From positions 1-57,330 of the forward strand of contig CAYQEJ010000004.1 of assembly GCA_964416505.1 (NCBI GenBank): a stretch of DNA of 57,330 nt. The letters are read 5' to 3'. Made by a program: the position numbers and the translations under genes. A model generated the notes under the pieces. It searched no databases. It saw nothing but the letters and a program-made list of their open reading frames with translations, and was not told the origin of the DNA. Positions 18,920 through 55,200 of this stretch are shown one piece after another. This stretch comes from an uncultured Gammaproteobacteria bacterium. GTDB lineage: Bacteria > Patescibacteriota > Microgenomatia > Levybacterales > UBA12049. Position 1 is the first letter of the stretch, and every line of letters starts with the position of its first letter.

Positions 18920-18941
18920 GCCTCGCAAGGCCTGGCCTTGC
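18920..18941. repeat. REP-like palindrome copy 1 (GCCTCGCAAGGCC-T-GGCCTTGC)
   Basis: 8-bp inverted arms at 18925-18932 and 18934-18941; matches the left 22 nt of the 50363 element except the central base; between convergent yqeY and secF. Confidence 0.8.
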
Positions 18942-18961
18942 ATGCCTGAATCTATATGAGC

Positions 18962-19873
18962 CTACTTATTCTTATTTCTAGTATGTCTTAAACTCCACTC
19001 GTGCCAGACAACGAGAATTGGGGAAGCATTAAATATTGATGAATATGTTCCTGAAATCATTCCCACAATGAGTGCCACCACAAACCAGCGAATACTTTCT
19101 CCTCCAAAAATTAGTAGAGCAAACAAAACCAAAAGTACTGTGATTGAAGTATTTAGTGATCTACCAATCGTTTGAAGAATTGAATCATTAACTGTTTTTT
19201 CAAAATTAGTTCCCCCATTTTTGGAAAGATTTTCTCTAATTCTATCAAAGACAACAATCGTATCATGAACTGAAAATCCAATAATTGTTAGAACTGCTGT
19301 AACAAAAAGACTGTCTATCTCAACATGCAGGAAGTGACCTAATAAAGAGAACACCCCCACAACTACCAATACGTCGTGCATCAAAGCAATGACTGTGGAA
19401 ACTCCAAATCTTATTGAGCTTGCTGGTTTTGGAACTTTTCTAAATACCAAGCTAATATATATAACTACCAAAAGCGAAGCTACCAAAACAGCTTTAACAG
19501 CATTCTTTGTTGTTTCTCCTCCTATCGTTGGTCCAATTGTTGAAAATTCCTGCTGCTTAGCATCTTTGTATTTTGTCTTCAATTCTTTTACAAATTTGTC
19601 ATCCTGTTCCTGAGTCATCTGGCTTGTCCTGGCGATTGCGAGTTTTTTTGAACTTTCTATGGAATAAACTTTAATATTATTTTTTTCTAGTGTTTGTTTT
19701 ATGAAATCTTTTTCCGAAACAGAAATTTCATTAGCAAAAAGAACAGACATTCTGGATCCACCAGTAAATTCAATTGACAAATTCAAACCATAAAGCAAAA
19801 GGGAGATTATTCCAGGAATCATCACTAAAAGCGATATTGCAAAATATAGATATTTTCTACCAATTATATTCAT
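18962..19873 (-). CDS. secF: Protein translocase subunit SecF
   Basis: LSIEFTGGS, TIGPTIG, ALMHDV, GFSVHDTIVVFDRIREN, GTYSSIF. Confidence 0.96.
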   Translation of the reverse strand: MNIIGRKYLYFAISLLVMIPGIISLLLYGLNLSIEFTGGSRMSVLFANEISVSEKDFIKQTLEKNNIKVYSIESSKKLAIARTSQMTQEQDDKFVKELKTKYKDAKQQEFSTIGPTIGGETTKNAVKAVLVASLLVVIYISLVFRKVPKPASSIRFGVSTVIALMHDVLVVVGVFSLLGHFLHVEIDSLFVTAVLTIIGFSVHDTIVVFDRIRENLSKNGGTNFEKTVNDSILQTIGRSLNTSITVLLVLFALLIFGGESIRWFVVALIVGMISGTYSSIFNASPILVVWHEWSLRHTRNKNK

Positions 19874-19874
19874 A

Positions 19875-21221
19875 TTATTTATAAACCAACTTTAATATCG
19901 TACGCGTTACTGTTATTGCTGAAAACATTGAAATTACTACACCAATCGCTAGGACCAATGCAAAACCTCTAATAATACCAGTTCCAAATGAATATAATAT
20001 TATGCAAGTAATAAGAGTTGAAACATTTGAGTCTCTAATCGACATCCAAGCATGAGAAAATCCTAATTCAATTGCAGTGGATTTACTTTTTCCATGCCTT
20101 AATTCTTCTTTTATGCGTTCAAAAATAAGAATATTTGCATCAACCGCCATTCCAATAGATAAAATAAGACCTGCTATTCCCGCAAGAGTTAATGTAATTC
20201 CATAAGGCGTAAGACTACTTAATTTAAAAACTGCTAAATTAAAGAGCGTGTACATGAGAAGAGCTACGCTTGCAATGATTCCAAGACGCCCATAAAGAAA
20301 AATCATAAATATAACTACCGTAAGAAATCCAATAAAACCTGCTATTAAGCTTTTATGAAGAGACTCTAAACCAAGAGTAGGTCCTACTACATGCTGCTCC
20401 ATAACGGTTAATTTTACAGGAAGTGCTCCAGCATTTAGTTGAGTACTCAGCTCCTTTGCATCAGCCTGCGTAAATCCACCCGAAATAATTGCATCTCCAG
20501 TAAGAATTGCATCATTTACATTTGGTGCTGTAATAATTTGATTATCAAGAACAATTGCTACTGGTTTTTGTAAATTTCTTTTTGTAATTTCTCCAAATTT
20601 TTTCGCGCCATTTGAATCAAACTTCAATTGCACAACAGGTGCACCCGTATTTGGATCAAATGAAACAGAAGAAGAGCTTAAATCTGATCCTGATAAGTTT
20701 GTCTTTTTGAGTGGACCCAGCCCCAACAATTCTGCATTGATCGGATATTCTCCGGAGGCAATTAACTCAGCAGAAATAGAAGCTGCGGGCTCCCAAAAGG
20801 TAAGCTGTGCTGTAGCTCCAATTAAGTCAATTGCCTGCTTTACATCGGTTACTCCAGGCAGCTCCACAATTATTCTGGAATCGTTATTGACTTTAGCAGT
20901 TTGAATTAAAGGTTCAGATACTCCATAAAGATTTATTCTTCTATCAATTACTTCCCTAGCGCTCTCAAGAGCCTTGTCACGCTCCCCTGCAGGCAACTTT
21001 TCAACTTCGGCTTTGAAAGTGAGACTTACCCCACCTTTAAGATCTAAGCCTTGCCTAAAATCAATTACTTTATTAAGCCCTAATTTCTGTGACAAAAAAG
21101 TAGCATTGTATTTAATTTCTTTACTTTTTCCAAATAATTCAATTTTTCCAGGCAAAGTTATAAAAATTGAAGCGATAGTGAGCAGAAATATAAAAGCAAA
21201 AAGTAATCGTGGATTTTTCAT
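19875..21221 (-). CDS. secD: Protein translocase subunit SecD
   Basis: GLDLKGG, RRINLYGVSEP, AGALPV, VGPTLG, GMAVDANILIFERIKEE. Confidence 0.96.
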   Translation of the reverse strand: MKNPRLLFAFIFLLTIASIFITLPGKIELFGKSKEIKYNATFLSQKLGLNKVIDFRQGLDLKGGVSLTFKAEVEKLPAGERDKALESAREVIDRRINLYGVSEPLIQTAKVNNDSRIIVELPGVTDVKQAIDLIGATAQLTFWEPAASISAELIASGEYPINAELLGLGPLKKTNLSGSDLSSSSVSFDPNTGAPVVQLKFDSNGAKKFGEITKRNLQKPVAIVLDNQIITAPNVNDAILTGDAIISGGFTQADAKELSTQLNAGALPVKLTVMEQHVVGPTLGLESLHKSLIAGFIGFLTVVIFMIFLYGRLGIIASVALLMYTLFNLAVFKLSSLTPYGITLTLAGIAGLILSIGMAVDANILIFERIKEELRHGKSKSTAIELGFSHAWMSIRDSNVSTLITCIILYSFGTGIIRGFALVLAIGVVISMFSAITVTRTILKLVYK

Positions 21222-21793
21222 GCCAGTAAGGATTCTTCGTCTCCTATTAGCATAACCCTGGATCCGAAAAGAATTGAAAGTATAAAGGGATCTCTTTTCT
21301 TTTTTCTAAAATCAAATTCTTCCTCTGTCATAACTGTATAATTTATCTCAGTATCAAGCCTTTTCTCTTCTTCACGAACTAAAAGAGCTAGCTCAGGTAA
21401 AACCACAGCACCTACTACTATAAGATCCACCTCTTCTGGTCCTTTTGGAAGACGTCTTGCAAATTTTCCAGAAAAAGATGCATATTTAATTCTTCCAAGC
21501 TTAACTCTATTCTTAAGAATTCCTTCTCCAAGCCCAATAGTTTTTGATCCAATTCTAAGAAGATCAAAATAAAATTCGTAATTTTTATTTAAATAGTAAT
21601 AAACTCTATTCGCACGTGGTTCTTTAGATAAGATTCCTTTTTTCTCCAAATATGCTAGCTCACGTCGCACTGCATTTATTTCGTCACCAGTTCGCCTAAC
21701 CAGCTCTCTAACATGAAACATTTCCGAAGGATAAGATAAGAAAACATTTATAAGTTTTACGCGAGATTTTGAAGTAATAATATCTGATAACAT
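21218..21793 (-). CDS. Winged-HTH protein with a nucleotidyltransferase-like C-terminal region
   Basis: N-terminal HVRELVRR......AVRREL..L...GIL; C-terminal FSGKFAR......EVDLIVVG and EINYTVMT.EEF resemble Pol-beta/MNT folds. Confidence 0.65.
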   Translation of the reverse strand: MLSDIITSKSRVKLINVFLSYPSEMFHVRELVRRTGDEINAVRRELAYLEKKGILSKEPRANRVYYYLNKNYEFYFDLLRIGSKTIGLGEGILKNRVKLGRIKYASFSGKFARRLPKGPEEVDLIVVGAVVLPELALLVREEEKRLDTEINYTVMTEEEFDFRKKKRDPFILSILFGSRVMLIGDEESLLA

Positions 21794-21853
21794 AAACCAA
21801 AAATATTAACAGTTATTTTACTCGATATTTGAAGATTAGTAAACTATCTCAAA

Positions 21854-23023
21854 CTATTTCACTTCTAGGACGCCTTCTGGAGGAATTATGTGGAACCAAA
21901 TTTTACCTCTTGTAAATTCTATCTCCTTACCACTTTCATCAGTAATAATTGTTCTGTCTGTTCTTGTTTTCTTACTCCATTTACCTTCAATCTTTTCTCC
22001 ATTCATAAATATAACAGCATCTCCCGATCCTTTTGTTTTATATAGTAGATGTGCATTGTTTTCATATCCATCGTTTGCGCTATTCTCAATTTGATACATA
22101 ACCACTATATTTTTTGCAGTTAATTGCTTACCTGTATTTTTATCTAAATGAGGAGCTCCACCATTACTTCTCTTATATTCATTAGATGCTTTATCATATG
22201 CCCAATCAATAAAGTAATCACCATCACTATCCCAGTGCTCTATATGAATTGATTTAGTAGATCCTCTCTCTCCAGAAGGAGCTTCATCCTGAAATGTATA
22301 TGGAACAAAACCTTCATCCCATGGCGTGCCATCTTTTCCTTTTACTCCTAATTCTCTTTCCTTCTGCGCAAAATCCCAAAGCTTAGAAGTCGTGGAATAC
22401 ATAGTGTGCTCCGTAGCCGTAGCATGACCTAAACGATTATAATCCCTCCAAAAAGTTGGGAAACCAATAGAAAATTGATTTAAGTCATTATAACCACCCC
22501 AGCCATAATCATTTATTTGAGATAACGCATCTGCTGGCCCAGGAGTATTTGCGCCTCCCACATGAGCATACAGAGGGCTATCGCCATATTCTGATATCCA
22601 GTCGAGGAAATAAGTTCTTGCACTTCTTACTGGTCCCACCTGAACGGGAGCATTACAGTAAAAAATATTTAATGTTCTAGTTATTCCACCTTCTGCAACC
22701 GCTTCATATGTTACGTCAGCTGAATTGATTCCAGACTGAGGCCTAGCATTTTCATGATTTTCTATCATCACACCAAGCGGTCTGTGTTTTTCCCACCATG
22801 ATTTTTGTTGCTTTGAATATTTTGCTCCATTCATTGGACATTCTTCAGTTTTTGGAAGCGAATCATCAAATACTATTTCTCCATTAGAATTGGTTGATGG
22901 AGGTGGAACTGGAGAAGCGAATCTTTGACCCAAAGAAGATTTTGCAAATAAAAAATATGAACCGCCGGTTGCTAAAAGATAAACTATTAAGGCTACTAAA
23001 ATTGTCTTCTTGTTCTTAAGCAT
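21854..23023 (-). CDS. DUF3048-type extracytoplasmic protein
   Basis: RPLGVMIEN...ARPQSG...AD..YE..AEGGITR, GPVRSAR.YF, HVGG; N-terminal TM helix. Confidence 0.85.
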   Translation of the reverse strand: MLKNKKTILVALIVYLLATGGSYFLFAKSSLGQRFASPVPPPSTNSNGEIVFDDSLPKTEECPMNGAKYSKQQKSWWEKHRPLGVMIENHENARPQSGINSADVTYEAVAEGGITRTLNIFYCNAPVQVGPVRSARTYFLDWISEYGDSPLYAHVGGANTPGPADALSQINDYGWGGYNDLNQFSIGFPTFWRDYNRLGHATATEHTMYSTTSKLWDFAQKERELGVKGKDGTPWDEGFVPYTFQDEAPSGERGSTKSIHIEHWDSDGDYFIDWAYDKASNEYKRSNGGAPHLDKNTGKQLTAKNIVVMYQIENSANDGYENNAHLLYKTKGSGDAVIFMNGEKIEGKWSKKTRTDRTIITDESGKEIEFTRGKIWFHIIPPEGVLEVK

Positions 23024-23029
23024 AAATGA

Positions 23030-23494
23030 TTATTTTATAGTTCCAGCTTCTTTCAAAGCTTTCTTTTCATCATCGGACAGTTCATGCTCAGTACCCTTAC
23101 CGTTTATAACTCGCTTAGCGTACCATCTTAAGCCCGATCTTGAATACAATCCAGAAATTATTACTCCAGAATCATTTTTATCTAAAAGAGATAAAATAAA
23201 ACTCTGATCTCCTCCTATATCCTTAAAAGGATTAAACCTTAAAAGGCCCACTTTCTGTATATGAAAATGGCCTTCTTTATCTATTCTATCACAGATAGTT
23301 CGTAACATTTCAATATCTTTTTTATTTTGAGCTTGTGACTTTAAAACATCCTCTAAGATTCCTCTAAGCCCTACCCTTCCCGTATCATCTGCGAGCCTAT
23401 TGAAGTGAATTAACATACGCCTGAAAAGAATAGTTAAAAAAACGGTCCAAATAAAAATAGCCGCTAGTAAAATGAGCACAAGGTAGTCAAACAT
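23030..23494 (-). CDS. DUF4446-type membrane protein
   Basis: N-terminal TM helix, QKVGLLRFNPF...GGDQSF..SLLD...SG..IS.L..R...R.YAK, LS.DEKKAL. Confidence 0.85.
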   Translation of the reverse strand: MFDYLVLILLAAIFIWTVFLTILFRRMLIHFNRLADDTGRVGLRGILEDVLKSQAQNKKDIEMLRTICDRIDKEGHFHIQKVGLLRFNPFKDIGGDQSFILSLLDKNDSGVIISGLYSRSGLRWYAKRVINGKGTEHELSDDEKKALKEAGTIK

Positions 23495-23513
23495 TGATAC
23501 TCATTGTTACTCC

Positions 23514-23532
23514 TTGACACGCATCGTGTCAA
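23514..23532. promoter_or_regulatory. Inverted repeat TTGACAC-N5-GTGTCAA in a divergent promoter (back-to-back -35 hexamers or operator)
   Basis: Perfect 7-bp arms, each containing TTGACA on its own strand. Confidence 0.5.
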
Positions 23533-23579
23533 TAGTGTATCTTGCCTTATGTAGCTTTAAATCAAGGCTAAATTCTAAA

Positions 23580-23843
23580 ATGGCAAAGAAGAAAACAAGA
23601 AAACAAAAAATTCTTGCCGATTCACGACATATCACATATCACCTTGAAACAAATTACTCTGCTCAAGTAAGTCACCCTACTGAGAAAAAATCTAAATTCA
23701 ATCTTGAGCAAATTTCGACTCCGACTACTGTCATAGCTAATTCTTATGCACATGTTGCTGCAGATATTAAAAAAACTGCATTCATAACCGGCGCCATACT
23801 TACAGCACAGATAATTCTTTTTATATTAATTAATAAGGTATAG
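23580..23843 (+). CDS. Small basic protein with C-terminal TM helix
   Basis: MAKKKTRKQK start (ATG 23580), C-terminal hydrophobic helix. Confidence 0.7.
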   Translation: MAKKKTRKQKILADSRHITYHLETNYSAQVSHPTEKKSKFNLEQISTPTTVIANSYAHVAADIKKTAFITGAILTAQIILFILINKV

Positions 23844-23867
23844 TTATTTGAAAGGGGGTGAATTTAA

Positions 23868-24011
23868 ATGGCAGAAATGTATTGCGTAAAATGCAGAGCT
23901 AAAAGAGACGATCCAAGTGCGACACCTGTTACCATGAAAAATGGTAAACCTGCAATGAAAGGAAAGTGTCCAGTTTGTGGTACAGGAATGTACAAAATCG
24001 GTAAAGCTTAA
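23868..24011 (+). CDS. 47-aa C4 zinc-binding protein, DUF5679-like (not in ORF track)
   Basis: MAEMYCVKCRAKRDDPSATPVTMKNGKPAMKGKCPVCGTGMYKIGKA; SD AAGGGGGTGA at 23852-23861; terminator downstream. Confidence 0.9.
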   Translation: MAEMYCVKCRAKRDDPSATPVTMKNGKPAMKGKCPVCGTGMYKIGKA

Positions 24012-24062
24012 ATTGCAGATTAATTTCTTGGATCACTTTTTGGAATCCAAGAAACACAATCG

Positions 24063-24100
24063 AAAAATCCCCTTTAATGGGGATTTTTCTTTTTTTATTT
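24063..24100. terminator. Intrinsic terminator, probably bidirectional
   Basis: AAAAATCCCC-TTTAAT-GGGGATTTTT hairpin followed by a T-run, between convergent genes. Confidence 0.85.
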
Positions 24101-24487
24101 GACAATAGCGTAAACGGGTTTTCCGGGAAGCTTTTTCCTAAATCCAGCTTTTGCATTTAATCTTGGAAAATTAATCCATGGATCCATCCAACCTTTTTCT
24201 GTAAATAAAAGGTAATGTCCTACAGGATGAACTTCTGTTTTACCTATAAATACAATGGTTCCAATTGGATAAATGTGGCTCTTTTTTCTTTTTACATATT
24301 TCAATGAATAATTAAATCCCATTTTTTCAAGCGAATCAATTATCTCTCTACAATAAAATCCCCTAAACTTAGCCCATTCATTTCCGTTAGTAAAATTTTT
24401 AATTGCTTTTCTATAACTAGAATTTGAAACGGATGCTACGCATGCAACTGCACATCCTGAAAAATGCTCTTGTCTAATTGCTTTCAT
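24095..24487 (-). CDS. Stand-alone C39-like cysteine peptidase domain protein
   Basis: Q-x5-C (QEHFSGCAVAC), GHY, MDP; 130 aa, no signal peptide; TACAAT 6 nt upstream of the start. Confidence 0.65.
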   Translation of the reverse strand: MKAIRQEHFSGCAVACVASVSNSSYRKAIKNFTNGNEWAKFRGFYCREIIDSLEKMGFNYSLKYVKRKKSHIYPIGTIVFIGKTEVHPVGHYLLFTEKGWMDPWINFPRLNAKAGFRKKLPGKPVYAIVK

Positions 24488-24625
24488 GCATTGATTGTAG
24501 AATTTAAAAAAATATATACAAGCGTGTATTTCAATACTCTGTCAATAGGCAATCTAAATCCATTCTGAAGCTATTAAATATATATAAATTTCTATAAATA
24601 TTAAGGGTATATAATTCCCACCTAT

Positions 24626-25090
24626 ATGCACGAAAGACACGAAAGAGAACAAAGATTAATTTCATTAGCTGAAAATAGAGGATTTAAATCCGGGCTAACA
24701 ATGGGGTTATTGGCTGGGAGCCTAGCTCTTGGTCTTTCAAATACATTATTAAGACCTAAGAACGTAGATCCACTAATTGATTGCGAAGGAGGACCTAGAA
24801 ATGGAGCTATTAATCTTTTTGTTAGAAAAAATGAAGTTTTCTCTACAAGAGCTATTACAGGAGGCGATCAAATTACCATAACTGGAGAGAATCCTGGATC
24901 ACTAAGAATTGAGGTTACTGAAAATGTAATCGTAACTTTTTCAGATCAACGAATTACAGGAGGAACTACAATTAATTTAAACCCAGATTCAACTGTATCT
25001 CTGGAGACGAATGGAATTATCATGAATGCTACAGGAAAATTAAGCGGTGATTCAACCGCTGTTTCCATCTCGACTAGCTGCAAAATTTAG
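24626..25090 (+). CDS. Hypothetical membrane-anchored beta-rich protein
   Basis: Hydrophobic helix at about aa 22-42, Thr/Gly/Ile-rich alternation, two Cys bracketing the domain. Confidence 0.7.
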   Translation: MHERHEREQRLISLAENRGFKSGLTMGLLAGSLALGLSNTLLRPKNVDPLIDCEGGPRNGAINLFVRKNEVFSTRAITGGDQITITGENPGSLRIEVTENVIVTFSDQRITGGTTINLNPDSTVSLETNGIIMNATGKLSGDSTAVSISTSCKI

Positions 25091-25091
25091 T

Positions 25092-25226
25092 CTATTCACA
25101 GCAAGGATCTTTGAAACCACAATTGTGACAAACAGCGTCGCGGCTTCCTGGCATATCTCCCATTTTCTCTTTACAAACTGGGCAAGATTGCGTTCTTAAA
25201 GTATTTTCATGTCCTTCAGTTTTCAT
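25092..25226 (-). CDS. 44-aa zinc-ribbon microprotein (not in ORF track)
   Basis: MKTEGHENTLRTQSCPVCKEKMGDMPGSRDAVCHNCGFKDPCCE; start overlaps the end of the HAD gene. Confidence 0.7.
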   Translation of the reverse strand: MKTEGHENTLRTQSCPVCKEKMGDMPGSRDAVCHNCGFKDPCCE

Positions 25227-25866
25227 CTTCTAAAACTTTAATAACGTCTCTTAAATCATCAACCCTTTTCCATGCATGGTTTTCTAGATCAAATCTAGAT
25301 CCATACAAAATACCGTGTTTTGTAAAATCAAATGCGCTTAAGTCGTTATCTGAATCTCCAATAAAAATAGCATCTTGGGGATTAATATCTAAAAGCTTAC
25401 AAATTTGATTAATTTGATCTACTTTTACTTGCGGATCTTCTCCGAAAGTTTCAAGACTAGTAAAATTTCCATCTTTATCAAAATTTAAAATGGTATTTAC
25501 TTTAAAATATTTAATTCCTAAGTGATGCGCTACACCCGAAACATATTCTGCGCTCCCAGAAGAAATTATTGCAATTTCGTATCCTTTTTTCTTTAAATAA
25601 CTAACTAAATCTTCTGCTTCTTCATTTATTTTGTAATTTTTATAATTCATCATCTGTTCATAATAATTCTTTTTTAACCCAACCTTCTTATAGAGTCTTT
25701 CAATATTATCGACCCAATCCTGAAAGCCTAAATTACCTTTATAATAGGCTCCCATTTGCTCTGTGATTTCAATGCTTATATCTAGCTTTTTTTCTAGCTG
25801 CGTTAGCGGATGGCCAAAGAGAAGAACTCCATCGCAATCAAAGAAGATTATTTTAAATTTATTCAT
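25216..25866 (-). CDS. HAD-superfamily phosphatase (SerB-like)
   Basis: FFDCDGVL (DxDxV), ISSG, K, FIGDSDND. Confidence 0.88.
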   Translation of the reverse strand: MNKFKIIFFDCDGVLLFGHPLTQLEKKLDISIEITEQMGAYYKGNLGFQDWVDNIERLYKKVGLKKNYYEQMMNYKNYKINEEAEDLVSYLKKKGYEIAIISSGSAEYVSGVAHHLGIKYFKVNTILNFDKDGNFTSLETFGEDPQVKVDQINQICKLLDINPQDAIFIGDSDNDLSAFDFTKHGILYGSRFDLENHAWKRVDDLRDVIKVLEDEN

Positions 25867-30491: not shown

Positions 30492-30493
30492 AA

Positions 30494-41468: not shown

Positions 41469-41474
41469 AGGAAA

Positions 41475-42341
41475 TTATTTAAGATATCTTAACACAGCGA
41501 GATAACTTGAGAAAGCTCCCAAAAGAATTGCAACGATTATTTGTATTCCTAAAAGCTCGAGAAGAACAATAGGAGATATTGGAAAAACTGGAATACCCTT
41601 TAAAAAAGATGAAAGATAAGGAGTCACATATAAAAGAGCTACTACGGAAATAAGCCAGCCCACCACAGCCCCTACTAAACCATAAAAAATTCCTTCCATA
41701 ATAAAAGGCCATCTAATATACCAACTCCCCGCTCCGATAAGCCTCATTGTTTCAATATCAGATCTTTTTTGAGAAATTTTTATACCAATTATCGTAACCA
41801 TAATAAATACAGAAACCAAAGCAAGAATAACAACAACTGCCAACCCAATCTTCCTAATCGCTCCCGTCCAAGCGCTTAATGTAGATACCACATCCTTCTG
41901 AAATACAACCTCCTGTACGATTGAAGACTTTTTTAAAGTGTCAGAAACCAAACTTAAATCTTCTATCTTATAGGTAGAGATTTCAAGTGATGCTGGTAAA
42001 ATATCAGCAGTCACAAGATCTAGAAGAAGCGGATCATCCTTATTTTGCTCTTTGTAGATTTTTAAAGCTTCATCTTTTGAAACATATTTGACGCTTGAGA
42101 TTAAACCTGATTTTTGAAGTGAATCTCCTAAACCCTTAATTTCTTCTTGCTTTGCTTCGTCTTTGAAAAAAGCCGTTACCTGGGGCTTAGATTCAAAATA
42201 ATTTACTATTCTGGTTGAACTAAATATTATAAGACCAAACACAGAAAATGCCAAAAAAGTAAGCATCATTACGAAAATAGCCGCTATAGCTTGATACGGA
42301 GATCTTCTTACATTTTTCCACATAGTTCTAACAGATTTCAT
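41475..42341 (-). CDS. ftsX: Cell-division permease FtsX
   Basis: TM, then extracellular domain (YVSKDEAL, LPASLEI), then 3 TM; IETMRLIGAG..YIRWPFIMEG. Confidence 0.93.
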   Translation of the reverse strand: MKSVRTMWKNVRRSPYQAIAAIFVMMLTFLAFSVFGLIIFSSTRIVNYFESKPQVTAFFKDEAKQEEIKGLGDSLQKSGLISSVKYVSKDEALKIYKEQNKDDPLLLDLVTADILPASLEISTYKIEDLSLVSDTLKKSSIVQEVVFQKDVVSTLSAWTGAIRKIGLAVVVILALVSVFIMVTIIGIKISQKRSDIETMRLIGAGSWYIRWPFIMEGIFYGLVGAVVGWLISVVALLYVTPYLSSFLKGIPVFPISPIVLLELLGIQIIVAILLGAFSSYLAVLRYLK

Positions 42342-43126
42342 TTCAAAGCCTCCTCAAAATCATCAGTTTTTATTTCTGATGATTCCTTTTTATCTTCTTT
42401 TTCATCGGTTTTTTCTTCATGCTCTTTCTTGTGTTCTTTTTTTTCGTGCTCCTCTTTCTTATGAGTTTTTTTATCATTTACAAGGGCTCCTTTGTTTAGC
42501 TCGATTATTCTTTTATTTAGTTTTTTGACGATCTCATTATTATGTGTTGCCATAATTATGGTAGTTCCTTTTTCGTTAATATTTTTCAAAAGCTCTACAA
42601 TTTCCCATGAGGTAGTATCATCTAGATTTCCTGTTGGCTCATCAGCTAATAAAATATCTGGTGAAAGAATAAGCGCACGTGCGATAGCTGCTCTCTGCAG
42701 CTCTCCTCCTGAAAGCTGTATAGGAAACTTATCTTTATGCTCCAGAATTCCAACCTGATTTAGTATTTCCATAGCTCGAGAAGTAGCATCTTTCTTATTT
42801 ACTCCAACCACTTCCAACGGAAGCATGGTATTCTCAAGTATTGTTCTATCTGTTAAAAGCTTAAGGTCCTGAAAAACTACTCCAATTTTCTTACGCAACT
42901 CAGGAACTTTTTTATTAGGCAGCTTTATTAAATCCCATGAATCGACAACTACAGTACCTTGAGTGGGAAGCATTTCACGAATAAGAAGTTTAAAAATCGT
43001 AGTTTTACCTGAACCAGTTGGGCCAATTAAGAAAACAAATTCACCTTTTTCAACCAGAAAGGAAATATCAGAGATAGCAAATACACCAGTACCAAATTTT
43101 TTTGAAACGTTTTCTAGGCTAATCAT
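42338..43126 (-). CDS. ftsE: Cell-division ATPase FtsE with a charged C-terminal tail
   Basis: GPTGSGKTT, VVFQD.KLL, LSGGE.QR, LADEPTGNLD, ATH; coupled to ftsX. Confidence 0.93.
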   Translation of the reverse strand: MISLENVSKKFGTGVFAISDISFLVEKGEFVFLIGPTGSGKTTIFKLLIREMLPTQGTVVVDSWDLIKLPNKKVPELRKKIGVVFQDLKLLTDRTILENTMLPLEVVGVNKKDATSRAMEILNQVGILEHKDKFPIQLSGGELQRAAIARALILSPDILLADEPTGNLDDTTSWEIVELLKNINEKGTTIIMATHNNEIVKKLNKRIIELNKGALVNDKKTHKKEEHEKKEHKKEHEEKTDEKEDKKESSEIKTDDFEEALK

Positions 43127-43149
43127 TTTTTAATAGATGGCGTGGGAGA

Positions 43150-43626: not shown

Positions 43627-43654
43627 CTTAGTAAAACATATTTGCTATCTTTTA

Positions 43655-44665: not shown

Positions 44666-44667
44666 AA

Positions 44668-45099: not shown

Positions 45100-45185
45100 A
45101 AGTCAATTTTAGTGTCTGACACGCATATTTGCAAACAACAAACCTAACATGACAGATCAAGGAACAAGTGATAATATTAGCGTAT

Positions 45186-47397: not shown

Positions 47398-48437
47398 GAG
47401 TTATTTCCCGCCATTAGAACTTCTTCTATCAAACGGTTCGCATATCCATACTCATTGTCATACCAGGCAATTACTTTAAGCATATTTCCGCCGACTACCT
47501 GAGTTAGGCCTAAATCGACAATTGCAGAATGGGCATTATGAACAATATCTGAAGATACAATTGGCTCTTCTGTCGCTTCTAGGATATTTTTAAAACTATT
47601 TTTTTTCACTGCTTCTTTAAATGCGCTGTTAACTTCCTCAACTGTTACATCTTTTTTCAATATAAAAGTAAAATCTGATAAGGAACCAACAGGAACCGGA
47701 ACTCTAATAGCTAACCCGTCAAAAATCCCTTCAAGCTCTGGGAGCGCTTTCGCAGCCGCCTTTGTGGCACCAGTAGATGTAGGCACTATATTTTCCGCTG
47801 CAGCTCGAGCACGCCTGTAATCTTCGTGTCCTCCGTCCTGTAAACGCTGATCCTGAGTATAACCATGAATTGTCGTCATCATGGCTTTTTCAATTCCAAA
47901 TGCATCTGCTATAACTTTCGCAACTGGAGTTATACAGTTTGTAGTACAAGAAGCATTACTTATTACATTTGCGCCGCTGTAATCAGAATCATTTACTGAT
48001 ACAACATATGTCTCTATGTTTCCTCCCTTTGCAGGAGCAGATAAGACAACATTTTTCGCTCCAGCCTTTATATGAAGATTCAGATCCTCAAGCTTTGTAA
48101 AATGACCTGTTGATTCAATAACCACATCAATCTTCAAATCCTCCCATGGAAGAAGCGATGGATCCTTCTGAGAATAAACAAATGTTTTTCTTCTTTTGTT
48201 TATTACTATTCTCCCCAGCAAATCCTTCTTTGATTCCCGGGATTTTTCAGTTGTAATTTCATCTTTTAATTTTCCATACACACTGTCATATTTAAGTAAA
48301 TACATCCATCCTTCTAAATCTGTGGATGAACCTGCATTGATTGCCACTACTTCGATCTTTCCTTTGTATTTCTCAAGAATCACTCGATGTGCCATTCGCC
48401 CTATTCTTCCATAACCATTTATTGCAACTCTAATCAT
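47394..48437 (-). CDS. gap: Type I glyceraldehyde-3-phosphate dehydrogenase
   Basis: INGYGRIGR, ESTG, SNASCTTNC, IVPTSTGA, WYDNEYGY. Confidence 0.97.
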   Translation of the reverse strand: MIRVAINGYGRIGRMAHRVILEKYKGKIEVVAINAGSSTDLEGWMYLLKYDSVYGKLKDEITTEKSRESKKDLLGRIVINKRRKTFVYSQKDPSLLPWEDLKIDVVIESTGHFTKLEDLNLHIKAGAKNVVLSAPAKGGNIETYVVSVNDSDYSGANVISNASCTTNCITPVAKVIADAFGIEKAMMTTIHGYTQDQRLQDGGHEDYRRARAAAENIVPTSTGATKAAAKALPELEGIFDGLAIRVPVPVGSLSDFTFILKKDVTVEEVNSAFKEAVKKNSFKNILEATEEPIVSSDIVHNAHSAIVDLGLTQVVGGNMLKVIAWYDNEYGYANRLIEEVLMAGNNS

Positions 48438-48441
48438 AAAT

Positions 48442-50271
48442 TTATATTAACAGTTCTTTCACTTTCTTAACAATTGCCACAGAATCAATTTGCTCATATG
48501 CGAGAAGCTCTTCAGGTTTTCCACTTCTTGGCTTTTTCGTAACAGATAAACTGTGAATTATTGCAGTATGCATACTTAAAGCAGAACGCACAGCTTCGGA
48601 AATTCCACCTTCAGGCCTATGATCTTCAATGACCAAAATTAACTTGCATTCGTCTGCAGCTTGCTCTAGTGTCGCAGAATCTATTGGCTTAATTGAATAC
48701 AAATCAATTACTCTCACATCAATTCCATCATTTTTTAATTCTTGATAAGCTTTCAAAGATTCATGAAGCGTTATACCAGCTCCAACAAGCGCAATTCTAT
48801 CCTTTTTAGAAGATTTTAAAACTTTACTTCCTCCAATCTCAAAATTTTCTCTTTCATGATAAATTACAGGAGTTTCCATGCGCGTTGTTCTAAGATAAAC
48901 AATTCCTTTATATTTCGCAGCTTCTTCAGTAAGTTTTTGAGCCGAGATTGCATCCGAAGGATATAAGACCACACTCTCTACTAATGAACGAAACATAGAA
49001 ATATCTTCAATTCCCATTTGCGATGCACCATCTTCGCCAATAGATACACCTGAATGCGATCCAACAAATTTTATATTTGCCCCAGCATATGCTGCCATTC
49101 TTATCTGGTCATGTGCCCTTGTCCAAAAAGCTGCAAATGTGGATATGAAAGGTATCTTTTCTCTTCTCGACAAACCAACAGCAACGGATACCATATTTTG
49201 TTCTGCGATGAACATTTCGAAATATTTTTCTGGATATTTTTTACCAAAAATTTCTGAATAAGTTGAATTTGAAGTTTCACCATCCATAACGACTAGGGAA
49301 GTGTGTAAGGGAAGAAGGTTGGGAAGAGTATCACCATAAGCCTTACGAGTTGCAATTAAATCTCCTGATTTATATTGTGCGACGTGATAAGTGTGTCGCG
49401 AAGAATTGCTATTTTCATCAATTATCATTCCTGGTCTTGCAATCCTTCCTCGAATTGATCTATCAATTTCACCAAGTGATTTCGTATTCTCCCCTAGTTC
49501 TTCGTAGGGGAGCGCTTTTCCGTGAAATCCCTCTTTATCTTCGACTTTAGGAATACCTTTTCCCTTTATCGTCTTCGCAATTATCATCACGGGTTTATCA
49601 TGGCTGGAAACAGCAAGAGAAAACGCTTGTGAAATTTCCTCCAAATTATGCCCATCCACAATATGACTATCCCAACCGAATGCTTCAAGTTTTTTCTGAT
49701 AATCTTTTACATTCCACCCATTCATCGTTTCACCGCTTTGCCCAAGCCTATTCACATCTATAATTCCAATTAGATTATTTAACTTGTAGTGACTTGCTAT
49801 TTCTATCGCTTCCCAAATTTGCCCTTCAGCGGTTTCACTATCACCCATCAAAACAAAGGTTTTATAATTTCTCCTATCCATTTTCGCAGCTAGCGCCATA
49901 CCTACGCCGACAGACAAACCCTGACCAAGCGAGCCCGTTGGAGCTTCCGTATATTTAAATTCCATTGTAGGATGCCCCTCTAAAGAACTCCCAAATTTTC
50001 TGTAATTTAAAAGTTCATTTTCCGATATTGCTCCCGCAGCAACCCAAAGTGAATAAAAAAGACTTGAAGCATGTCCTTTGGAAAAAATTATTCTGTCATT
50101 TTCTGGAAAATCTGGATTTTTCATATCGAATCTGAAAAATCCTCCAAAAAAAAGCACAGTCATAAGATCAGTTGCAGAAAGAGAGGAAGTAAGATGCCCT
50201 GAACCTGCTGAGGAAGTGGAAAGAAGACAGTAATATCTAATTAGCTTTGCTAACTTTTCCAGATTTTCCAT
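48442..50271 (-). CDS. tkt: Transketolase (single chain, 609 aa)
   Basis: SGHLTSS, SKGHA, EGHP, GSLGQG, GDSE...GQIWEA (TPP motif), EMFIAEQNM, GEDGASQ. Confidence 0.95.
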   Translation of the reverse strand: MENLEKLAKLIRYYCLLSTSSAGSGHLTSSLSATDLMTVLFFGGFFRFDMKNPDFPENDRIIFSKGHASSLFYSLWVAAGAISENELLNYRKFGSSLEGHPTMEFKYTEAPTGSLGQGLSVGVGMALAAKMDRRNYKTFVLMGDSETAEGQIWEAIEIASHYKLNNLIGIIDVNRLGQSGETMNGWNVKDYQKKLEAFGWDSHIVDGHNLEEISQAFSLAVSSHDKPVMIIAKTIKGKGIPKVEDKEGFHGKALPYEELGENTKSLGEIDRSIRGRIARPGMIIDENSNSSRHTYHVAQYKSGDLIATRKAYGDTLPNLLPLHTSLVVMDGETSNSTYSEIFGKKYPEKYFEMFIAEQNMVSVAVGLSRREKIPFISTFAAFWTRAHDQIRMAAYAGANIKFVGSHSGVSIGEDGASQMGIEDISMFRSLVESVVLYPSDAISAQKLTEEAAKYKGIVYLRTTRMETPVIYHERENFEIGGSKVLKSSKKDRIALVGAGITLHESLKAYQELKNDGIDVRVIDLYSIKPIDSATLEQAADECKLILVIEDHRPEGGISEAVRSALSMHTAIIHSLSVTKKPRSGKPEELLAYEQIDSVAIVKKVKELLI

Positions 50272-50362
50272 ATATTTATCTTATCAAATAAAATCCACTA
50301 ATATAATTTCTTGATTTTAAGGAATTTGGATCAAATCAATTTTATGTAGCCTTATAGTCTTC

Positions 50363-50393
50363 TAGCCTCGCAAGGCCAGGCCTTGCGAGGCTA
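50363..50393. repeat. REP-like perfect palindrome copy 2 (TAGCCTCGCAAGGCC-A-GGCCTTGCGAGGCTA)
   Basis: 15-bp perfect inverted arms around one base, GC-rich, in the AT-rich spacer between divergent tkt and uppP. Confidence 0.88.
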
Positions 50394-50453
50394 ATGTTAT
50401 AGGACATTGATTTAGTTGATCTTATAGCTAAAAATATTGATATAATTTTCCCC

Positions 50454-51230
50454 ATGAACTTATTACAAACATTAATATTATCTCTTATTGAAGGCATTAC
50501 GGAGTTTCTACCTATCTCTTCTACAGGGCATTTAATTCTTTCAACTCACGCACTTCAGATTCCTCAAACAGAATTCGTCAAAAGCTTTGAAATAATTATT
50601 CAACTTGGAGCAATCTTAGCAATATTTGTGCTCTATTTTAAAAAACTATTAAATACAAAGCTCTGGCCTACTCTTTTAGCCGCATTTATTCCAAGCGCAG
50701 CAGTAGGATTTGTATTCTATAAATTAATTAAAGAATCTTTAATTGGAAATAGTCTTATTACCGTAATTGCACTTTTCTTGGGAGGAGTGGCTTTCATTCT
50801 TATCGAAAACTGGCATAAAAATTTGAAAAATGAAAAACAAATCGAAAGTCTAGAAAAAATTTCACTAAAAAATGCTTTTGTAATTGGTCTTTTTCAATCC
50901 ATCTCCATAGTTCCCGGAGTATCTCGCGCAGGAGCTACGATTCTAGGGGCGATGATTCTTAAGACCAACAGAAAGGTTGCGGCAGAATTCTCATTTCTCC
51001 TTGCAGTCCCCACCATGTTTGCAGCTACCGGTTTAGACATAATGGAAACAAAATTAGATTTTTCATCATACGAACTTTTCTTGCTAACAATTGGGTTTAT
51101 AGCCTCTTTTATTTTCGCAATCTTATCCGTAAAGCTACTTATTAAATATTTGACAAATCATTCATTCACTTTTTTTGGAGTTTATAGAATAATTCTTGCT
51201 ATTATCTTCTGGCTTGTTTATTTAAGATGA
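50454..51230 (+). CDS. uppP: Undecaprenyl-diphosphate phosphatase (BacA)
   Basis: IEGITEFLPISSTGH, QLGA.LA, PGVSRAG, EFSFLLAVP. Confidence 0.96.
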   Translation: MNLLQTLILSLIEGITEFLPISSTGHLILSTHALQIPQTEFVKSFEIIIQLGAILAIFVLYFKKLLNTKLWPTLLAAFIPSAAVGFVFYKLIKESLIGNSLITVIALFLGGVAFILIENWHKNLKNEKQIESLEKISLKNAFVIGLFQSISIVPGVSRAGATILGAMILKTNRKVAAEFSFLLAVPTMFAATGLDIMETKLDFSSYELFLLTIGFIASFIFAILSVKLLIKYLTNHSFTFFGVYRIILAIIFWLVYLR

Positions 51231-51529
51231 ATACATTTGAGAAAGTTTATGAATTGGTTAAAAAAATCCCTTCTGGAAAGGTAACAACATACGGCGAGAT
51301 TGCTAAATCTATCGGCATAAAAAATCCACGCGTAGTTGGCTTTGCATTACACGTTAATCGCGATCCAGACAATATCCCCTGTCATAGAGTAGTGAATAAA
51401 GAGGGTGAACTTGCAAAAGGATACGCATTTGGAGGACTGGGAATTCAAAAAAAATTACTCATACAGGAAGGTGTAAAATTTGAAGGTGATAAAGTGGATT
51501 TTAGAGCTTCTTTCTTTTCCCTTACTTAG
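51227..51529 (+). CDS. MGMT-family alkylguanine DNA repair protein (C-terminal domain only)
   Basis: IPSGKVTTYGEIA, PR.VG.AL, PCHRVV (active Cys retained), QK.LL..EGV. Confidence 0.9.
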   Translation: MNTFEKVYELVKKIPSGKVTTYGEIAKSIGIKNPRVVGFALHVNRDPDNIPCHRVVNKEGELAKGYAFGGLGIQKKLLIQEGVKFEGDKVDFRASFFSLT

Positions 51530-51689
51530 CAAACTGAAATTTAGGAAAAGAAATCTTTTTTTCCTTAAAAGAAAAACCTACCCCTTTAAGAAGGTTAAAA
51601 CTGAGAGCAACCACTAAAAGTACTAGAGCTGCAAAAATACAGAGTACAAACCAACCAATCGCCGTTGAAAAGTCCAAAAAACTCTTCAT
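51522..51689 (-). CDS. Putative 55-aa single-TM protein (not in ORF track)
   Basis: MKSFLDFSTAIGWFVLCIFAALVLLVVALSFNLLKGVGFSFKEKKISFPKFQFAK; TATAAT 9 nt upstream of the ATG. Confidence 0.5.
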   Translation of the reverse strand: MKSFLDFSTAIGWFVLCIFAALVLLVVALSFNLLKGVGFSFKEKKISFPKFQFAK

Positions 51690-51862
51690 AAGCTACGAAT
51701 TATAGCTTAGATTAGCTTCAAAGTCAATGCTATAGGACTCTTTTTGACTTCTTGCAAAACTACTACATAAAATTCGTATAAAGCACTAAAAAAAGGTATA
51801 ATATTTGAAGAGTGAGAATAACGTTAAATAGCTTTGATAGCTTATGTTTTTTTGTTATTGAA

Positions 51863-51872
51863 AAGGAGGTGA
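51863..51872 (+). promoter_or_regulatory. Strong Shine-Dalgarno AAGGAGGTGA
   Basis: Full anti-SD complement immediately upstream of ATG 51876. Confidence 0.85.
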
Positions 51873-51875
51873 ATT

Positions 51876-52223
51876 ATGGATAATTCCCAAATCCCCCAAG
51901 AAATAAAAAATTTCCTTGAAAGCATACTAAATGATGCAAATATGAGCGCAGAAGGTACACTTCGTGAAGAAATGATTAAAGAGCTTTACGCACGTCTCGA
52001 TGAATATCTCACAAATGTAATCGTAGATAAAATGCCAGCAGAGCATTTAGAAGCATTTATAAAGATAAACGAAGAAGGAAAATCTAAAGAAGAAATTGAT
52101 ACATTCTTAAGAAGTAATTTACCAAATGCTCAAGAGGTTTTTACTAATGCTTTTGCTGATTTTAGAGATCTTTACTTAAATAACGTTTACGTTTCGAGAA
52201 ATGTACAAACGAAAGGAGAATAA
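51876..52223 (+). CDS. DUF5663-like acidic helical protein
   Basis: Acidic helical pattern EMIKELYARLDEYL...IVDKM...LEAF......EEIDTFL...LPN..EVF..A..DFRDLYL. Confidence 0.75.
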   Translation: MDNSQIPQEIKNFLESILNDANMSAEGTLREEMIKELYARLDEYLTNVIVDKMPAEHLEAFIKINEEGKSKEEIDTFLRSNLPNAQEVFTNAFADFRDLYLNNVYVSRNVQTKGE

Positions 52224-52225
52224 CT

Positions 52226-55200
52226 ATGACAGCCGAGACAGCTAATCCGACAACCGCTATTCCAGGCGGAGCTACAGAAAGTGCAACGCAAGTTGTAAGG
52301 ACTGAAACAAGAAGAAGACAGGAAAGAATTTACACTGCTGAAGAAGTAACACAAGCGGTAAGGGAGGGTTTTGAATTTTATAGGTCTGCAAGACTAGGAA
52401 GCAAAGAGCAGGAATTTTTGAGAGATTACGAATTGGAAACTTTTGAGCAAACTTTAGCTCAAGACCAAGAGACAAGAACGGAATCTGCAGTAGATGCTGC
52501 AGGCAATACTTATTTGATTAATGGACGAGCTCGAGTTAGTGGACTCATGACTGTACTTGCAGCATCAATCAAAGATCCAGAAAAATATTCTATAACTGCG
52601 GATGAAAGAACAAGATTCCAAGAAATTTATGACACATTATCCGATAACAGCTCTCCTTATTTAGATGGCAAAGCTATAAAAGCCGAAAAAAGAGGAAAAG
52701 GAACAGGCCGAAAAAGTAAAAAAAGCACTGATATTCGCGCATCTCTAATTGGGGATATGCTTCAGAAAATTGACGCAGACCCTAGATTTAAAGGAAAAAG
52801 CAAAAAAGCAAGATTAGAAAAAGCTACAGAAATTATTCAGGATCAAAGAGAAATTTACCTGCCTAAACCAAGAAAGACAAGTCAAACATCAACTGAACTC
52901 CCTGCTGAACCTACCACACCAAGCGCACCTAGTGAAATACCAGCTTGGGTTACTCGAAATGGAACTGGAGATATTCCTAGCCCTGTAAACACAAGCGGAA
53001 ATGCCCCCTGGCTAACTCAAACAACTCCGTTAACTTTTGAAGGTTTAGCAAACGGAAATGGATCAAGCGGATGGGAACCTAAAGCAAAACAAGATGAGGC
53101 ACCTTGGGGAAAACCTGATCTACCAAAAGGTGTTGAAGTAAGAACATCACAATTGCCGGAAGAAATTATTAGAGATGCACAGGCTAGAAAAGATGCAGCA
53201 GGCACTCCTCCACCCCCCGCTACGCCACCGGCAGCTGAAGGAGGAGCATCTGAACCAGAAGACAGAACAAGCCTTATGGACGAGGCTTTAATAAATTTTG
53301 AAAACAGATATGCAGATTTTGAGTATAGGAGTGATCCTGAAGTACAAAGAGAAATGCATGAAGCTTACGGAGAATCAATTCAAAGACTTATGGAACTCGC
53401 AGGTGACAGAAGCGCGGTAAGCGAATTCATTCAGGCAAGAGTTAGCAGGAGTATGCTTCAGTCCCAAAAAGATTTTGATGTTCCTGAAGAAAAACTAAAG
53501 GAAGCAAGAGATAGAGAAGAAGCTGCTAGAGACAAACTTTATGAATTAGTAAAAAACAAACCAGCTTCGCAAGACTTACAGTCTAAAGGCCTGGCCTTGA
53601 AGCCTGCGGCTGAAGCGGGAGGAACACCGACTTCAGGTCAAGAAGTTTCAGGATCTAGTATTTCTCCTATGGAAAGAGCTCTTATAGATTTAGAAGCTGA
53701 TGGGGATTCAACAGGAAGAATTGCAAGAACAATTAGAGAAAGAGGCGTTGACAACGCTTTAACAGATTCAATCCCAGTAGGAGAACGTATAAGAATAATA
53801 CAAGAAATAGCTGATCAAATCGGAGATATGCCAAAAATGCCAAATCCAACTGATTTTGATCATATAGCAGATGATAGCGAGTCTAATCAGGCTTATACTA
53901 CTGCTTTGGAACTAGCCAAAAAGCAAATTAGAGCCTGGGAAGATGAAGCGCAGTCTCAATACCTTGCGCACACAATGCCATCTGAAGGGGAAAACGGATT
54001 AGAGGCAATTGTTACCAAACTTTTTAAGGATTCCGATGCTATAAATGCTCCTATTTGGCGAAGAGCACTGGACATTCAAAAAACTATTAGACCTGGTGGA
54101 GCTCCTTCCGGAAGACAGATCCCTAATCCTCAAAGAACCGTAGAGGCTCCCGGACCTCAGCTTTCAGAAAAAGAACAGGCGGCAATCAAATTTATTGATT
54201 CTGCAACTCAGTCATATAAAACAGAAATCAATCTTTCAGAACTTAACAAAACCAGAATTAGACCTACTGAAGTAGTCCAACACGAAGCACAAGCTATAGA
54301 AAAACAAAAAGATTCGATTCTTTTATTAATCGGTGGTAACCAAGAAGCCTTTAATAGATATGACGCTATTGCCCGAAAAAGGCAAAAATTTGATCAAAAA
54401 ATAGAAGAAAAATATGGAATTGATCGCACTAATTTAACTTTTCAAGAAAAAGCAGAAGATCGGGCGATCTCAGATGAGCTTGCATCTTCACTAGATGAAC
54501 TTCGAAGACTTGCCATCGAAAAGGCAAATTCCACTTCCCTTGAAATCCCTCTTCCTATAGCGCCCCCGCCTGGAACCGAAGATAGTGCTTGGGCAGAGGT
54601 TTTGACAGGTGCCTTACCTGCTGAATTACCAGATTCCACTTCTCAAGATGCATGGATTCGAGCATTATCTCAAGCTCTTCCTGAAGGCCCGAGTGGATCA
54701 TTGCGACCTGAATCCATATTCTCAGATGAGAGATCTGAGACTGCCGCAAGAGAAATTTCTGAAAAATTAGATGTTCTTGAAATGACAATTGGGATGACAA
54801 GTATTTTTAGTACCACTGAAGGAGACAGAACCTCGCACCAAATTGAAAGTCTTGAGAAAATACGTCAAGAACTGGGTGAAGCTACAGGCTCTCAAGAATC
54901 AGTAGAGACGTATATAAAACTTATTGAAAGGATTAATGCTTTAAGTTCAGCAGATGTTTTAAACGAAGGTTTCCGTGCAGAATTAGATGATCTTAAGAGT
55001 GAAAAAGAACGAGTAAAAGCTGAGCTAATAAGATTAGCTCTAGAAAAAAATGGCCTAAGTGTCCCTCCAGAACCAGAAGCACCAGAAGCGGAAAACCCAC
55101 TTAGGCAAAGATTTGAAGCCGCAAAAAAATTAGTTGAACTAGATATTGATTCTGAAACTGATAAATATACGGAAGATATAGGAGATCTTACTAATCCTGA

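Follow-up and report, generated by a model that had tools for sequence, protein, structure and literature searches.

Repetitive extragenic palindromes (REPs) and the REP-associated tyrosine transposases (RAYTs) have been studied mainly in Proteobacteria, and the mode of REP spread is unsettled. In the year 2000, Ogata and colleagues are said to have described palindromic elements of Rickettsia that are inserted in frame into housekeeping genes. These Rickettsia palindromic elements (RPEs) are about 100–150 bp long, and we know of no transposase for them. REPs within genes, and REPs whose TAG serves as a stop codon, are also known in other bacteria (PMC3733652). The REP transposases (TnpA-REP) of E. 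coli and Marinomonas cleave at CT or CA, either 5' or 3' of the hairpin (PMC8266576). Here we analyzed a stretch of 57,330 nucleotides (nt) (contig CAYQEJ010000004.1, positions 1 to 57,330; "the window"), in which an earlier interpretation made from the letters alone (here referred to as the sequence-only reading) had proposed a dispersed family of palindromes. With a probability of about 0.88, we read three sites in the window as copies of a REP-type hairpin repeat, which belongs to a REP/RAYT system of a Levybacteria genome of about 1 Mb. The sequence-only reading proved largely correct, and each of the four checks that it had suggested gave a result in its favor.

The repeat family and the RAYT gene

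The window corresponds to C4:1-57330 of genome G000, whose assembly comprises 1.01 Mb in 15 contigs (C1, C2 and so on) with about 34% GC; congeners are given as G001, G002 and so on. Family copies were counted by a Hamming scan against the 31-mer and, in addition, by an nhmmer profile search. The consensus is a perfect palindrome of 31 nt, TAGCCTCGCAAGGCCWGGCCTTGCGAGGCTA, and the unit reaches about 45–55 nt when the flanks are counted. In the Hamming scan of the genome, 33 sites have at most 8 mismatches to the 31-mer, none has 9 or 10, and background begins at 11, so that the distribution is bimodal. The nhmmer search found 36 sites genome-wide, including one half copy and two variant copies. 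These 33–36 copies, against virtually none expected by chance, bear out the proposal of a dispersed family. The core AAGGCCNGGCCTT had been reported three times in the window, and we located it at 18927, 50372 and 53586, where 0.07 occurrences are expected; three or more were seen in 0 of 100 shuffles. Among all genomic occurrences of the 13-nt core, 30 of 31 belong to family copies.

The hairpin is conserved beyond this genome. The exact variant occurs 32 times in G000, 27 times in G005, 19 times in G009, eight times in G001, five times in G010 and 0–2 times in the other congeners; within the genus, species hold between 0 and about 33 copies. Throughout the genus and order there are GCAAGG-N5-CCTTGC hairpins whose centres are species-specific. 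Moreover, a sample of 121 genomes of the class contained 11, from 11 genera, with the pattern TAGCC-N4-AAGG-N5-CCTT-N4-GGCTA, at 1–5 copies outside G000; the reversed control gave none. The family had been supposed to be lineage-specific, which did not hold, as related variants are scattered sporadically across the class. Among 15 variants, whose varying stem positions were unconstrained Ns in the search pattern, 95% of the cells are paired and 7 of the 14 pairs have changed on both sides, a value as high as none of 500 shuffles. Judged from this comparison of variants, the stem is shown to be maintained across species by compensatory changes.

The surroundings of the repeat are also recurrent. 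The motif CCTATAA/TTATAGG lies within 20 nt of 11 REPs (0.19 expected) and CTATAAG/CTTATAG lies near eight of them (0.16 expected). Directly outside the left arm, CCTATAAYNT is present in about 12 of 33 copies, and on the other side of the palindrome N3-5-CTATAAG is often seen. The best reading of these flanks is a direct CTATAA on each side, 3–5 nt beyond the hairpin. TAG is invariant at the hairpin end and is mostly preceded by T or C (YTAG: TTAG/CTAG), with GTAG in a few copies only, such as C1:73975 and the copy within the RAYT gene of G006. At several loci, including four RAYT genes, the TAG of the repeat is the stop codon of the upstream gene (one example is given in Table 1). We also noticed a box, TTAGCCTCA, whose first 8 nt are the same as the REP foot TTAGCCTC; it occurs at 24 sites in G000 (e.g. 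C2:55955, 56383 and 56755), compared with about 7 expected from base composition. This box may be a solitary foot recognized by RAYT, or may have nothing to do with the repeat.

The sequence-only reading had seen no cognate transposase in the window, and a single intact gene in fact lies on contig C5 of the same genome, with repeats on both sides. Its product, the sole Pfam Y1_Tnp match in G000, scores 39.8 bits against a cut-off of 23, carries the HUH motif as NHFHF and has its catalytic tyrosine in KYIHKQ. A perfect repeat is located 10 nt past the stop codon, and a half repeat 34 nt upstream of the start. The AlphaFold model of this RAYT (56 homologs) has a mean pLDDT of 86 and a pTM of 0.82. 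In PDB it matches 4ER8_A best (E = 9e-5, probability 1.00), a structure of the REP-associated tyrosine transposase of E. coli in complex with a REP hairpin; next come the transposases of IS200, IS608 and ISDra2. A phmmer search of the protein against PDB sequences gave no useful match. The protein of about 220 aa carries an extra helical segment.

The same REP-RAYT-REP arrangement is found in eight genomes (G000, G005, G009, G001, G006, G002, G014 and G010), each with its own variant of the repeat, and the hairpin TAG is often the RAYT stop codon in these genomes. A Gottesmanbacteria RAYT (MFJD01000003) likewise has a repeat variant directly downstream. G000 has one RAYT match, whereas congeners have 0–7, and 14 of the 16 congeners possess at least one. 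More than half of the 56 aligned RAYT homologs read LASQG(Q/E)AL(R)(G/S)(Y/W) in frame immediately after YIHKQA. At the nucleotide level, the internal copies in the RAYT genes of G006, G002 and G010 are the variants that flank the same gene, and that of G006 is a perfect 31-mer. The internal REP directly follows the catalytic motif, YIHKQA or YIHRNP. The RAYTs of G000, G005 and G009 are without an internal REP and are about 9 residues shorter at that point. Many RAYT homologs are on contigs of 1–2 kb, which would fit contig breaks at the repeat. Elsewhere in G000, two copies about 900 nt apart (C2:42279-42309 and C2:43206-43236) carry reciprocal single changes (GGCCAGACC, GGTCTGGCC) and bracket an open reading frame (ORF) of 277 aa (42299-43132), which resembles a second REP-gene-REP unit.

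The host is probably a Levybacteria-type bacterium of the candidate phyla radiation (CPR), and the label Gammaproteobacteria is probably wrong. The best named homologs of GatA, Tgt and RAYT are from Candidatus Levybacteria or Patescibacteria at 63–80% identity, and both genome size and gene content (e.g. MurT) fit CPR. The nearest public contigs (CAZWXQ01, CAZMGC01, CAZBFH01, CAYIXE01 and CAZXEC01) are also titled "uncultured Gammaproteobacteria bacterium"; these titles are probable mislabels, because the proteins most resemble those of Candidatus Levybacteria. Since close relatives carry Gammaproteobacteria titles while other hits are Patescibacteria, an adaptor or assembly artefact, or a transfer across phyla, was considered as the source of the repeats. 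It was rejected: the repeats are degenerate, lie in frame and keep to specific sites, and the named homologs that match best are those given above.

The three copies in the window

Copy 2 is intact and of recent gain. The sequence-only reading had described it as a perfect palindrome of 15+1+15 between the divergent genes tkt and uppP, which both the sequence and the Pfam matches confirm (Table 1). Folded as single-stranded DNA, it forms a stem of 14 bp with a free energy of -17.8 kcal/mol (z = -6.65). The copy lies between the starts of the two genes, in a spacer of 182 nt in G000. The corresponding spacer measures 60 nt in G005, G008, G003 and G013 and 74 nt in G015, and the repeat is absent from all five. 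The remaining congener spacers that were read are longer and have other content. The lack of the repeat in five congeners marks copy 2 as a gain of this genome in particular, at an insertion-prone spacer. This spacer (window 50272-50453) is an insertion hot spot: unrelated insertions are present in at least G006, G009, G010 and G014, of which G006 and G014 carry a different palindromic element (GTCATTCTGAAC...GATCCCGAAATAAATTCGGGATGACAAT), G010 has about 250 nt of extra sequence and G009 about 1.2 kb.

Copy 1 is an old, half-decayed copy at a site that several relatives share. It occupies most of the 54-nt spacer between the convergent genes yqeY and secF, and its kept left arm and decayed right arm are as the sequence-only reading had described them. 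Only a 7-bp hairpin is left, with a free energy of -7.4 kcal/mol. At the same site, G005 and G009 have the same repeat, whose TAG in G009 is the yqeY stop codon, and G002, G003, G004 and G014 have related hairpins with different centres. The spacers of G007 and G008 (6–12 nt) hold no hairpin. In total, 7 of the 13 genus genomes with a spacer read have the repeat or a related hairpin there.

Copy 3 is read in frame within a giant ORF, and is an old variant with a 15-nt in-frame insert in a disordered linker. Its translation, ASQ-DLQSK-GLAL-KP, contains the KGLAL reported earlier and lies in a linker rich in Pro, Ala, Gly and Ser. The copy folds into two hairpins of 5 bp. The earlier caution that this copy could be coincidental deserves consideration, since, aligned without gaps, it differs from the 31-mer at 13 positions, a number within background; nhmmer matched the core, with an E-value of only 0.087 for the core alone, and the orthologous linkers following the conserved helical domain (ending ...KLYEL) cannot be aligned among congeners. 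Nevertheless, a chance match within a GC-richer ORF is highly improbable. Apart from this site, the 13-nt core is confined to family copies (30/31). The left arm AGCYTCGCAAG, which occurs 45 times in the genome and only once more outside the family, stands 15 nt upstream of the core in the same reading phase. The only other copy with this architecture, C1:198450-198491, has TCGCAA-(A/G)ACT..CAGTCTAA-AGGCCWGGCCTTG and reads ASQ-NSQSK-GQAL. The giant-ORF ortholog of G005 also has a canonical in-frame copy in its linker, LASQGLASGS, with the flank CCTATAAC. On account of the in-phase left arm, the (A/G)ACT..CAGTCTAA common to C1:198450 and the linker copy of G005, we regard copy 3 as a genuine member of the family. 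Near its 3' end, the giant ORF enters the 100-N assembly gap of the contig, so its true end is uncertain.

The positions of the copies also allow another explanation, in which the hairpins are structural signals selected by the host (terminators or attenuators, stabilizers of mRNA 3' ends, or protein-binding sites) that are inherited vertically and are not mobile. By an ORF-based estimate, about 93% of the genome is coding. Of the intergenic copies, 16 lie between genes of the same direction and 5 between convergent genes, compared with 3 between divergent ones, and the majority are 3–30 nt downstream of a gene 3' end. The shared site of copy 1 and the compensatory changes in the stem would also fit this explanation, and effects of REPs on mRNA stability have been reported from elsewhere (PMC3733652). 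However, no copy in the window is followed by a T-run: there are no terminator-like sites at copies 1 and 2, in line with the earlier judgement that copy 2 is an implausible terminator, and the flanks of the other copies are also without T-runs. Copy 2 and two others are situated between divergent gene starts, and ORFs contain 11 copies. The hairpins are therefore unlikely to serve primarily as terminators. Moreover, a transposase gene flanked on both sides by the repeat in eight genomes, 0–33 copies among congeners and the lack of copy 2 in five of them are at odds with purely vertical signals. We thus consider this explanation quite improbable and retain a mobile REP family; the hairpins may in addition have a secondary role at the RNA level.

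Table 1. Coordinates and sequences of the repeat copies, neighboring genes and variants
Feature	Location or genome	Strand	Description
REP copy 1	18918..18948	.	left arm kept, right arm decayed (TTGCCTCGCAAGGCCTGGCCTTGCATGCCTG); 5 mismatches, 4 of them in the right arm
Left flank motif of copy 1	18908..18917	+	CCTATAATCT; instance of the recurrent CCTATAAYNT
yqeY-like gene	18458..18907	+	Pfam YqeY, E = 3e-50; stops 10 nt before copy 1
secF-like gene	18962..19873	-	Pfam SecD_SecF_C, E = 2.2e-58; ends 13 nt after copy 1
REP copy 2	50363..50393	.	perfect 15+1+15 palindrome TAGCCTCGCAAGGCCAGGCCTTGCGAGGCTA; 0 mismatches to consensus
Extended element round copy 2	50350..50404	.	left CCTTATAG(tcttc), right (atg)TTATAGGA; TTATAG direct repeat on both sides
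tkt (transketolase), left of copy 2	48442..50271	-	Pfam Transketolase_N, Transket_pyr, Transketolase_C
uppP/bacA, right of copy 2	50454..51230	+	Pfam BacA, E = 3.6e-70
REP copy 3	53563..53605 (core 53586-53599)	+	in frame in giant ORF; left arm AGCTTCGCAAG, 15-nt insert, GCCTGGCCTTG, decayed right arm
Insert of copy 3	~53574-53588	+	15 nt, itself a small palindrome, AGACT-TAC-AGTCT
Giant ORF, host gene of copy 3	52226..57330, continuing to C4:59176	+	2316 aa, acidic, linker-rich
RAYT gene	C5:27460-28137	-	sole Pfam Y1_Tnp match in G000; 219-226 aa depending on start
Upstream gene using repeat TAG as stop	G000 C1:102817-103986		
Variant flanking RAYT	G006		TAGCCTTCCAAGGCCAGGCCTTGGAAGGCTA
Variant flanking RAYT	G002		TAGCCTCAAAAGGTGAGACCTTTTGAGGCTA
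Variant flanking RAYT	G014		TAGCCTCGCAAGG(C/T)CTCCCCTTGCGAGGCTA
GatA-site sequence	G000, G005, G009, G013		centre GGCCAGGCC
GatA-site sequence	G006		TTAGCCTTCCAAGGCCAGGCCTTGGAAGCT, own compensatory arms
GatA-site sequence	G008, G004, G012		centre GGGGACGCC, the same as the G008 master
GatA-site sequence	G002, G011		centre GGAGAGACC

Copies inside genes and variants at shared sites

The proposal that the repeats contribute peptide segments to proteins is well supported: 11 of the 36 copies (31%) are inside long ORFs, and 10 of these 11 are in the phase that reads (L/I/V)ASQGQAL. Two of the three phases are open, and the third starts with TAG. The remaining copy, in MurT, uses the other open phase and reads ISFARPGLARL. 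According to database matches, the host ORFs are GatA, GlmS, DHFR, Tgt, MurT, ribosomal protein L1, DUF763 and the giant ORF, and there are three more without a database-assigned function. In MurT (..SYN-ISFARPGLARL) and in the giant ORF of G005, a CTATAA-type flank is carried into the ORF as well, which suggests that at least some events transfer the flank together with the hairpin. In other Microgenomates, the identical palindrome is in frame in genes whose translations read as UvrC-like (in a Daviesbacteria genome), aminoacyl-tRNA synthetase-like, P-type ATPase-like and glycosyltransferase-like.

The sequence-only reading had anticipated (Q/K)GLAL or QGQAL insertions in otherwise alignable proteins, and segments of the form (L/I)ASQG(Q/L)AL were found in GatA, Tgt and RAYT. 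The clearest case is Tgt. Most Levybacteria, including the deepest ones, read ...LKAQ-KRxDQL, while a subset reads ...LKTH-LASQGLAL-QGWDQL. The in-frame insert is a 30-nt unit, T-TAGCC...GAGGC, placed between "cat" and "aaa" and clean in comparison with the empty orthologs. Of 16 congeners, 4 carry the insert and a fifth matches it in part; deeper relatives lack it. In G011, the original KRPN is retained after the insert, and in its copy (C1:31793-32254) 15 nt within the hairpin are duplicated in tandem (TTCCAAGGCGAGGCC twice), resulting in LTFQGEAFQGEALRG. In GatA, the segment is present in 12 of 14 congeners, and a short form, ATA GCT AAA GGT GAA GAT CTT CCT, is found in G001 and G015. The GatA site must be old, because many more distant Levybacteria carry LASQGxxL there. 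Presence or absence at orthologous loci, which the sequence-only reading had proposed to compare, is seen for both copy 2 and Tgt. Some other sites, among them those of copy 1 and GatA, are old ones that several species have in common, and do not represent recent insertions.

At the in-frame site in GatA, the sequence in each genome is that genome's own master variant (Table 1). In G006, the in-frame copies of both GatA and Tgt have the compensatory variant of that genome (TTCCAAGG...CCTTGGAA). A tree of GatA and Tgt, built from only 288 columns with the repeat columns removed, separates two clades with supports of 100 and 99. On this tree, variant type A at the GatA site requires two or more origins, and so does type B. 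It is possible, although we would not favor it over other outcomes, that the REP copies evolve in concert and that RAYT repeatedly replaces or re-templates them with the current master variant of the genome. The pattern fits such replacement, or conversion, of copies; it would fit equally if copies had inserted repeatedly and independently at the same sites, or if species had recombined with one another. If concerted evolution were true, a segment of about 10 residues, (L/I)ASQGxAL, would be continually rewritten in GatA, in Tgt and, just after the catalytic tyrosine, in RAYT, and through the RAYT-internal copy the enzyme could also target the gene or mRNA that encodes it.

The in-frame insertion into housekeeping genes in one preferred phase resembles the RPEs of Rickettsia. 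It could accordingly be supposed that the elements are RPE-like, or are MITEs (small transposable elements with inverted repeats) of another transposon, either of the DDE type or with a lost enzyme, and that the neighborhood of RAYT is incidental; several congeners indeed have RAYTs but few copies. This idea is hardly credible. With 31 nt, the unit falls well short of the length of RPEs or MITEs, and apart from the hairpin it lacks terminal inverted repeats. Furthermore, the variant beside each RAYT is exactly the one that predominates in the genome concerned, and in three cases it also lies inside the ORF of the RAYT itself, a match that is hard to explain unless RAYT and the repeat are functionally linked.

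For the REP/RAYT system, the mode of action can be inferred from E. coli TnpA-REP and IS608. RAYT would bind the hairpin formed on single-stranded DNA and would cut at CT beside it. Such a site is available on either side of the hairpin in the recurrent CTATAA, whose CT may be where cleavage takes place. Strand joining would then make new copies or replace existing ones. Selection would keep copies mainly in short spacers just 3' of genes, and within genes copies would survive only as stop-free, tolerated loops.

Several observations weigh against a REP/RAYT system. First, the stem of this perfect palindrome lacks a bulge; E. coli REPs depend on one, and restored pairing at this bulge abolished activity (PMC3733652, PMC8266576). 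Second, the foot is YTAG, whereas E. coli TnpA-REP strictly requires GTAG (PMC8266576). Third, the RAYT scores 31.9 bits with NCBIfam REP_Tyr_transpos, below the cut-off of 80. Fourth, the presence of RAYT does not track copy number, and many RAYT-bearing congeners hold only 0–5 copies of the variant. Fifth, the intergenic empty sites (C6:27.7 kb and tkt/uppP) gave no exact boundaries or target duplication, because the spacers are too diverged (about 75% identity even in genes), and copy 2 is embedded in about 120 nt of additional sequence instead of being a clean insertion of 31–45 nt. Finally, sites within genes differ in their net gain in length, with +12 nt for GatA and between +24 and +30 nt for Tgt; these unequal values are a poor fit to a cut-and-paste unit of fixed size.

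Comparison with known systems

The system shares many features with the REPs or BIMEs of E. coli with TnpA-REP (4ER8) and the REPINs of Pseudomonas with their RAYTs, namely a GC-rich hairpin in tens of copies, mostly downstream of genes. As in the "REPtrons" of REP/RAYT systems, a single-copy Y1/HUH gene is flanked by the repeat, species have their own variants of both gene and repeat, and TAG is sometimes a stop codon (PMC3733652, PMC8266576). In contrast to those systems, the palindrome here is a perfect 15+1+15 without a bulge, ends in YTAG and not GTAG, and has 31% of its copies in genes; many RAYT genes themselves contain an in-frame copy, the host is a CPR bacterium, and the RAYT falls below the NCBIfam cut-off. 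The GTAG that defines the GTAG-tagged REP superfamily (Di Nocera 2013) is not conserved here, and a strict, intergenic-only definition of REPs does not cover the family, with 11 of 36 copies in Pfam-confirmed ORFs.

Comparable in this respect are the intragenic GTAG REPs (Di Nocera et al. 2013, PMC3733652), which are also whole REPs in ORFs, some of them for DNA repair, and also provide TAG stops. Unlike them, the family described here has a much higher intragenic share with one dominant phase (10/11), and one in-frame site carries different species-specific variants in different species. The likeness to RPEs consists in palindromes of a small-genome, host-dependent bacterium that are in frame in housekeeping genes and add a peptide. 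The differences are the length of 31 nt, which is outside the RPE size range, the cognate RAYT and the absence of common sequence. IS200/IS605 elements (IS608, ISDra2) and their transposase-less derivatives also combine a Y1 HUH enzyme with single-stranded hairpins and cuts at short outside sites, and the direct CTATAA on both sides resembles their left and right cleavage sites, although cleavage here is only presumed. In contrast to them, there are no distinct left and right ends, as one symmetric hairpin would serve for both, and there is no tnpB.

A literature search for RAYTs or REP/RAYT systems in CPR bacteria found no description, and a survey of HUH enzymes (PMC6006769) does not mention CPR groups. 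The family therefore adds a new host group with ultra-small genomes that have hardly any intergenic space, where a third of the copies are visible as peptides in essential enzymes. Dozens of species with different compensatory variants at shared sites make it possible to separate transposition from replacement by comparative genomics. A bulge-free, perfect palindrome without GTAG as substrate is a biochemical puzzle, all the more as many RAYT genes contain their own substrate. For annotation, it should be kept in mind that the repeat provides some stop codons and inserts LASQGQAL-type segments into proteins. In summary, systems of the REP/RAYT kind, including intragenic REPs, are already known; new here are the host from the CPR, the large proportion of intragenic copies, the presence of a copy within the RAYT gene and the switching of variants at individual sites.

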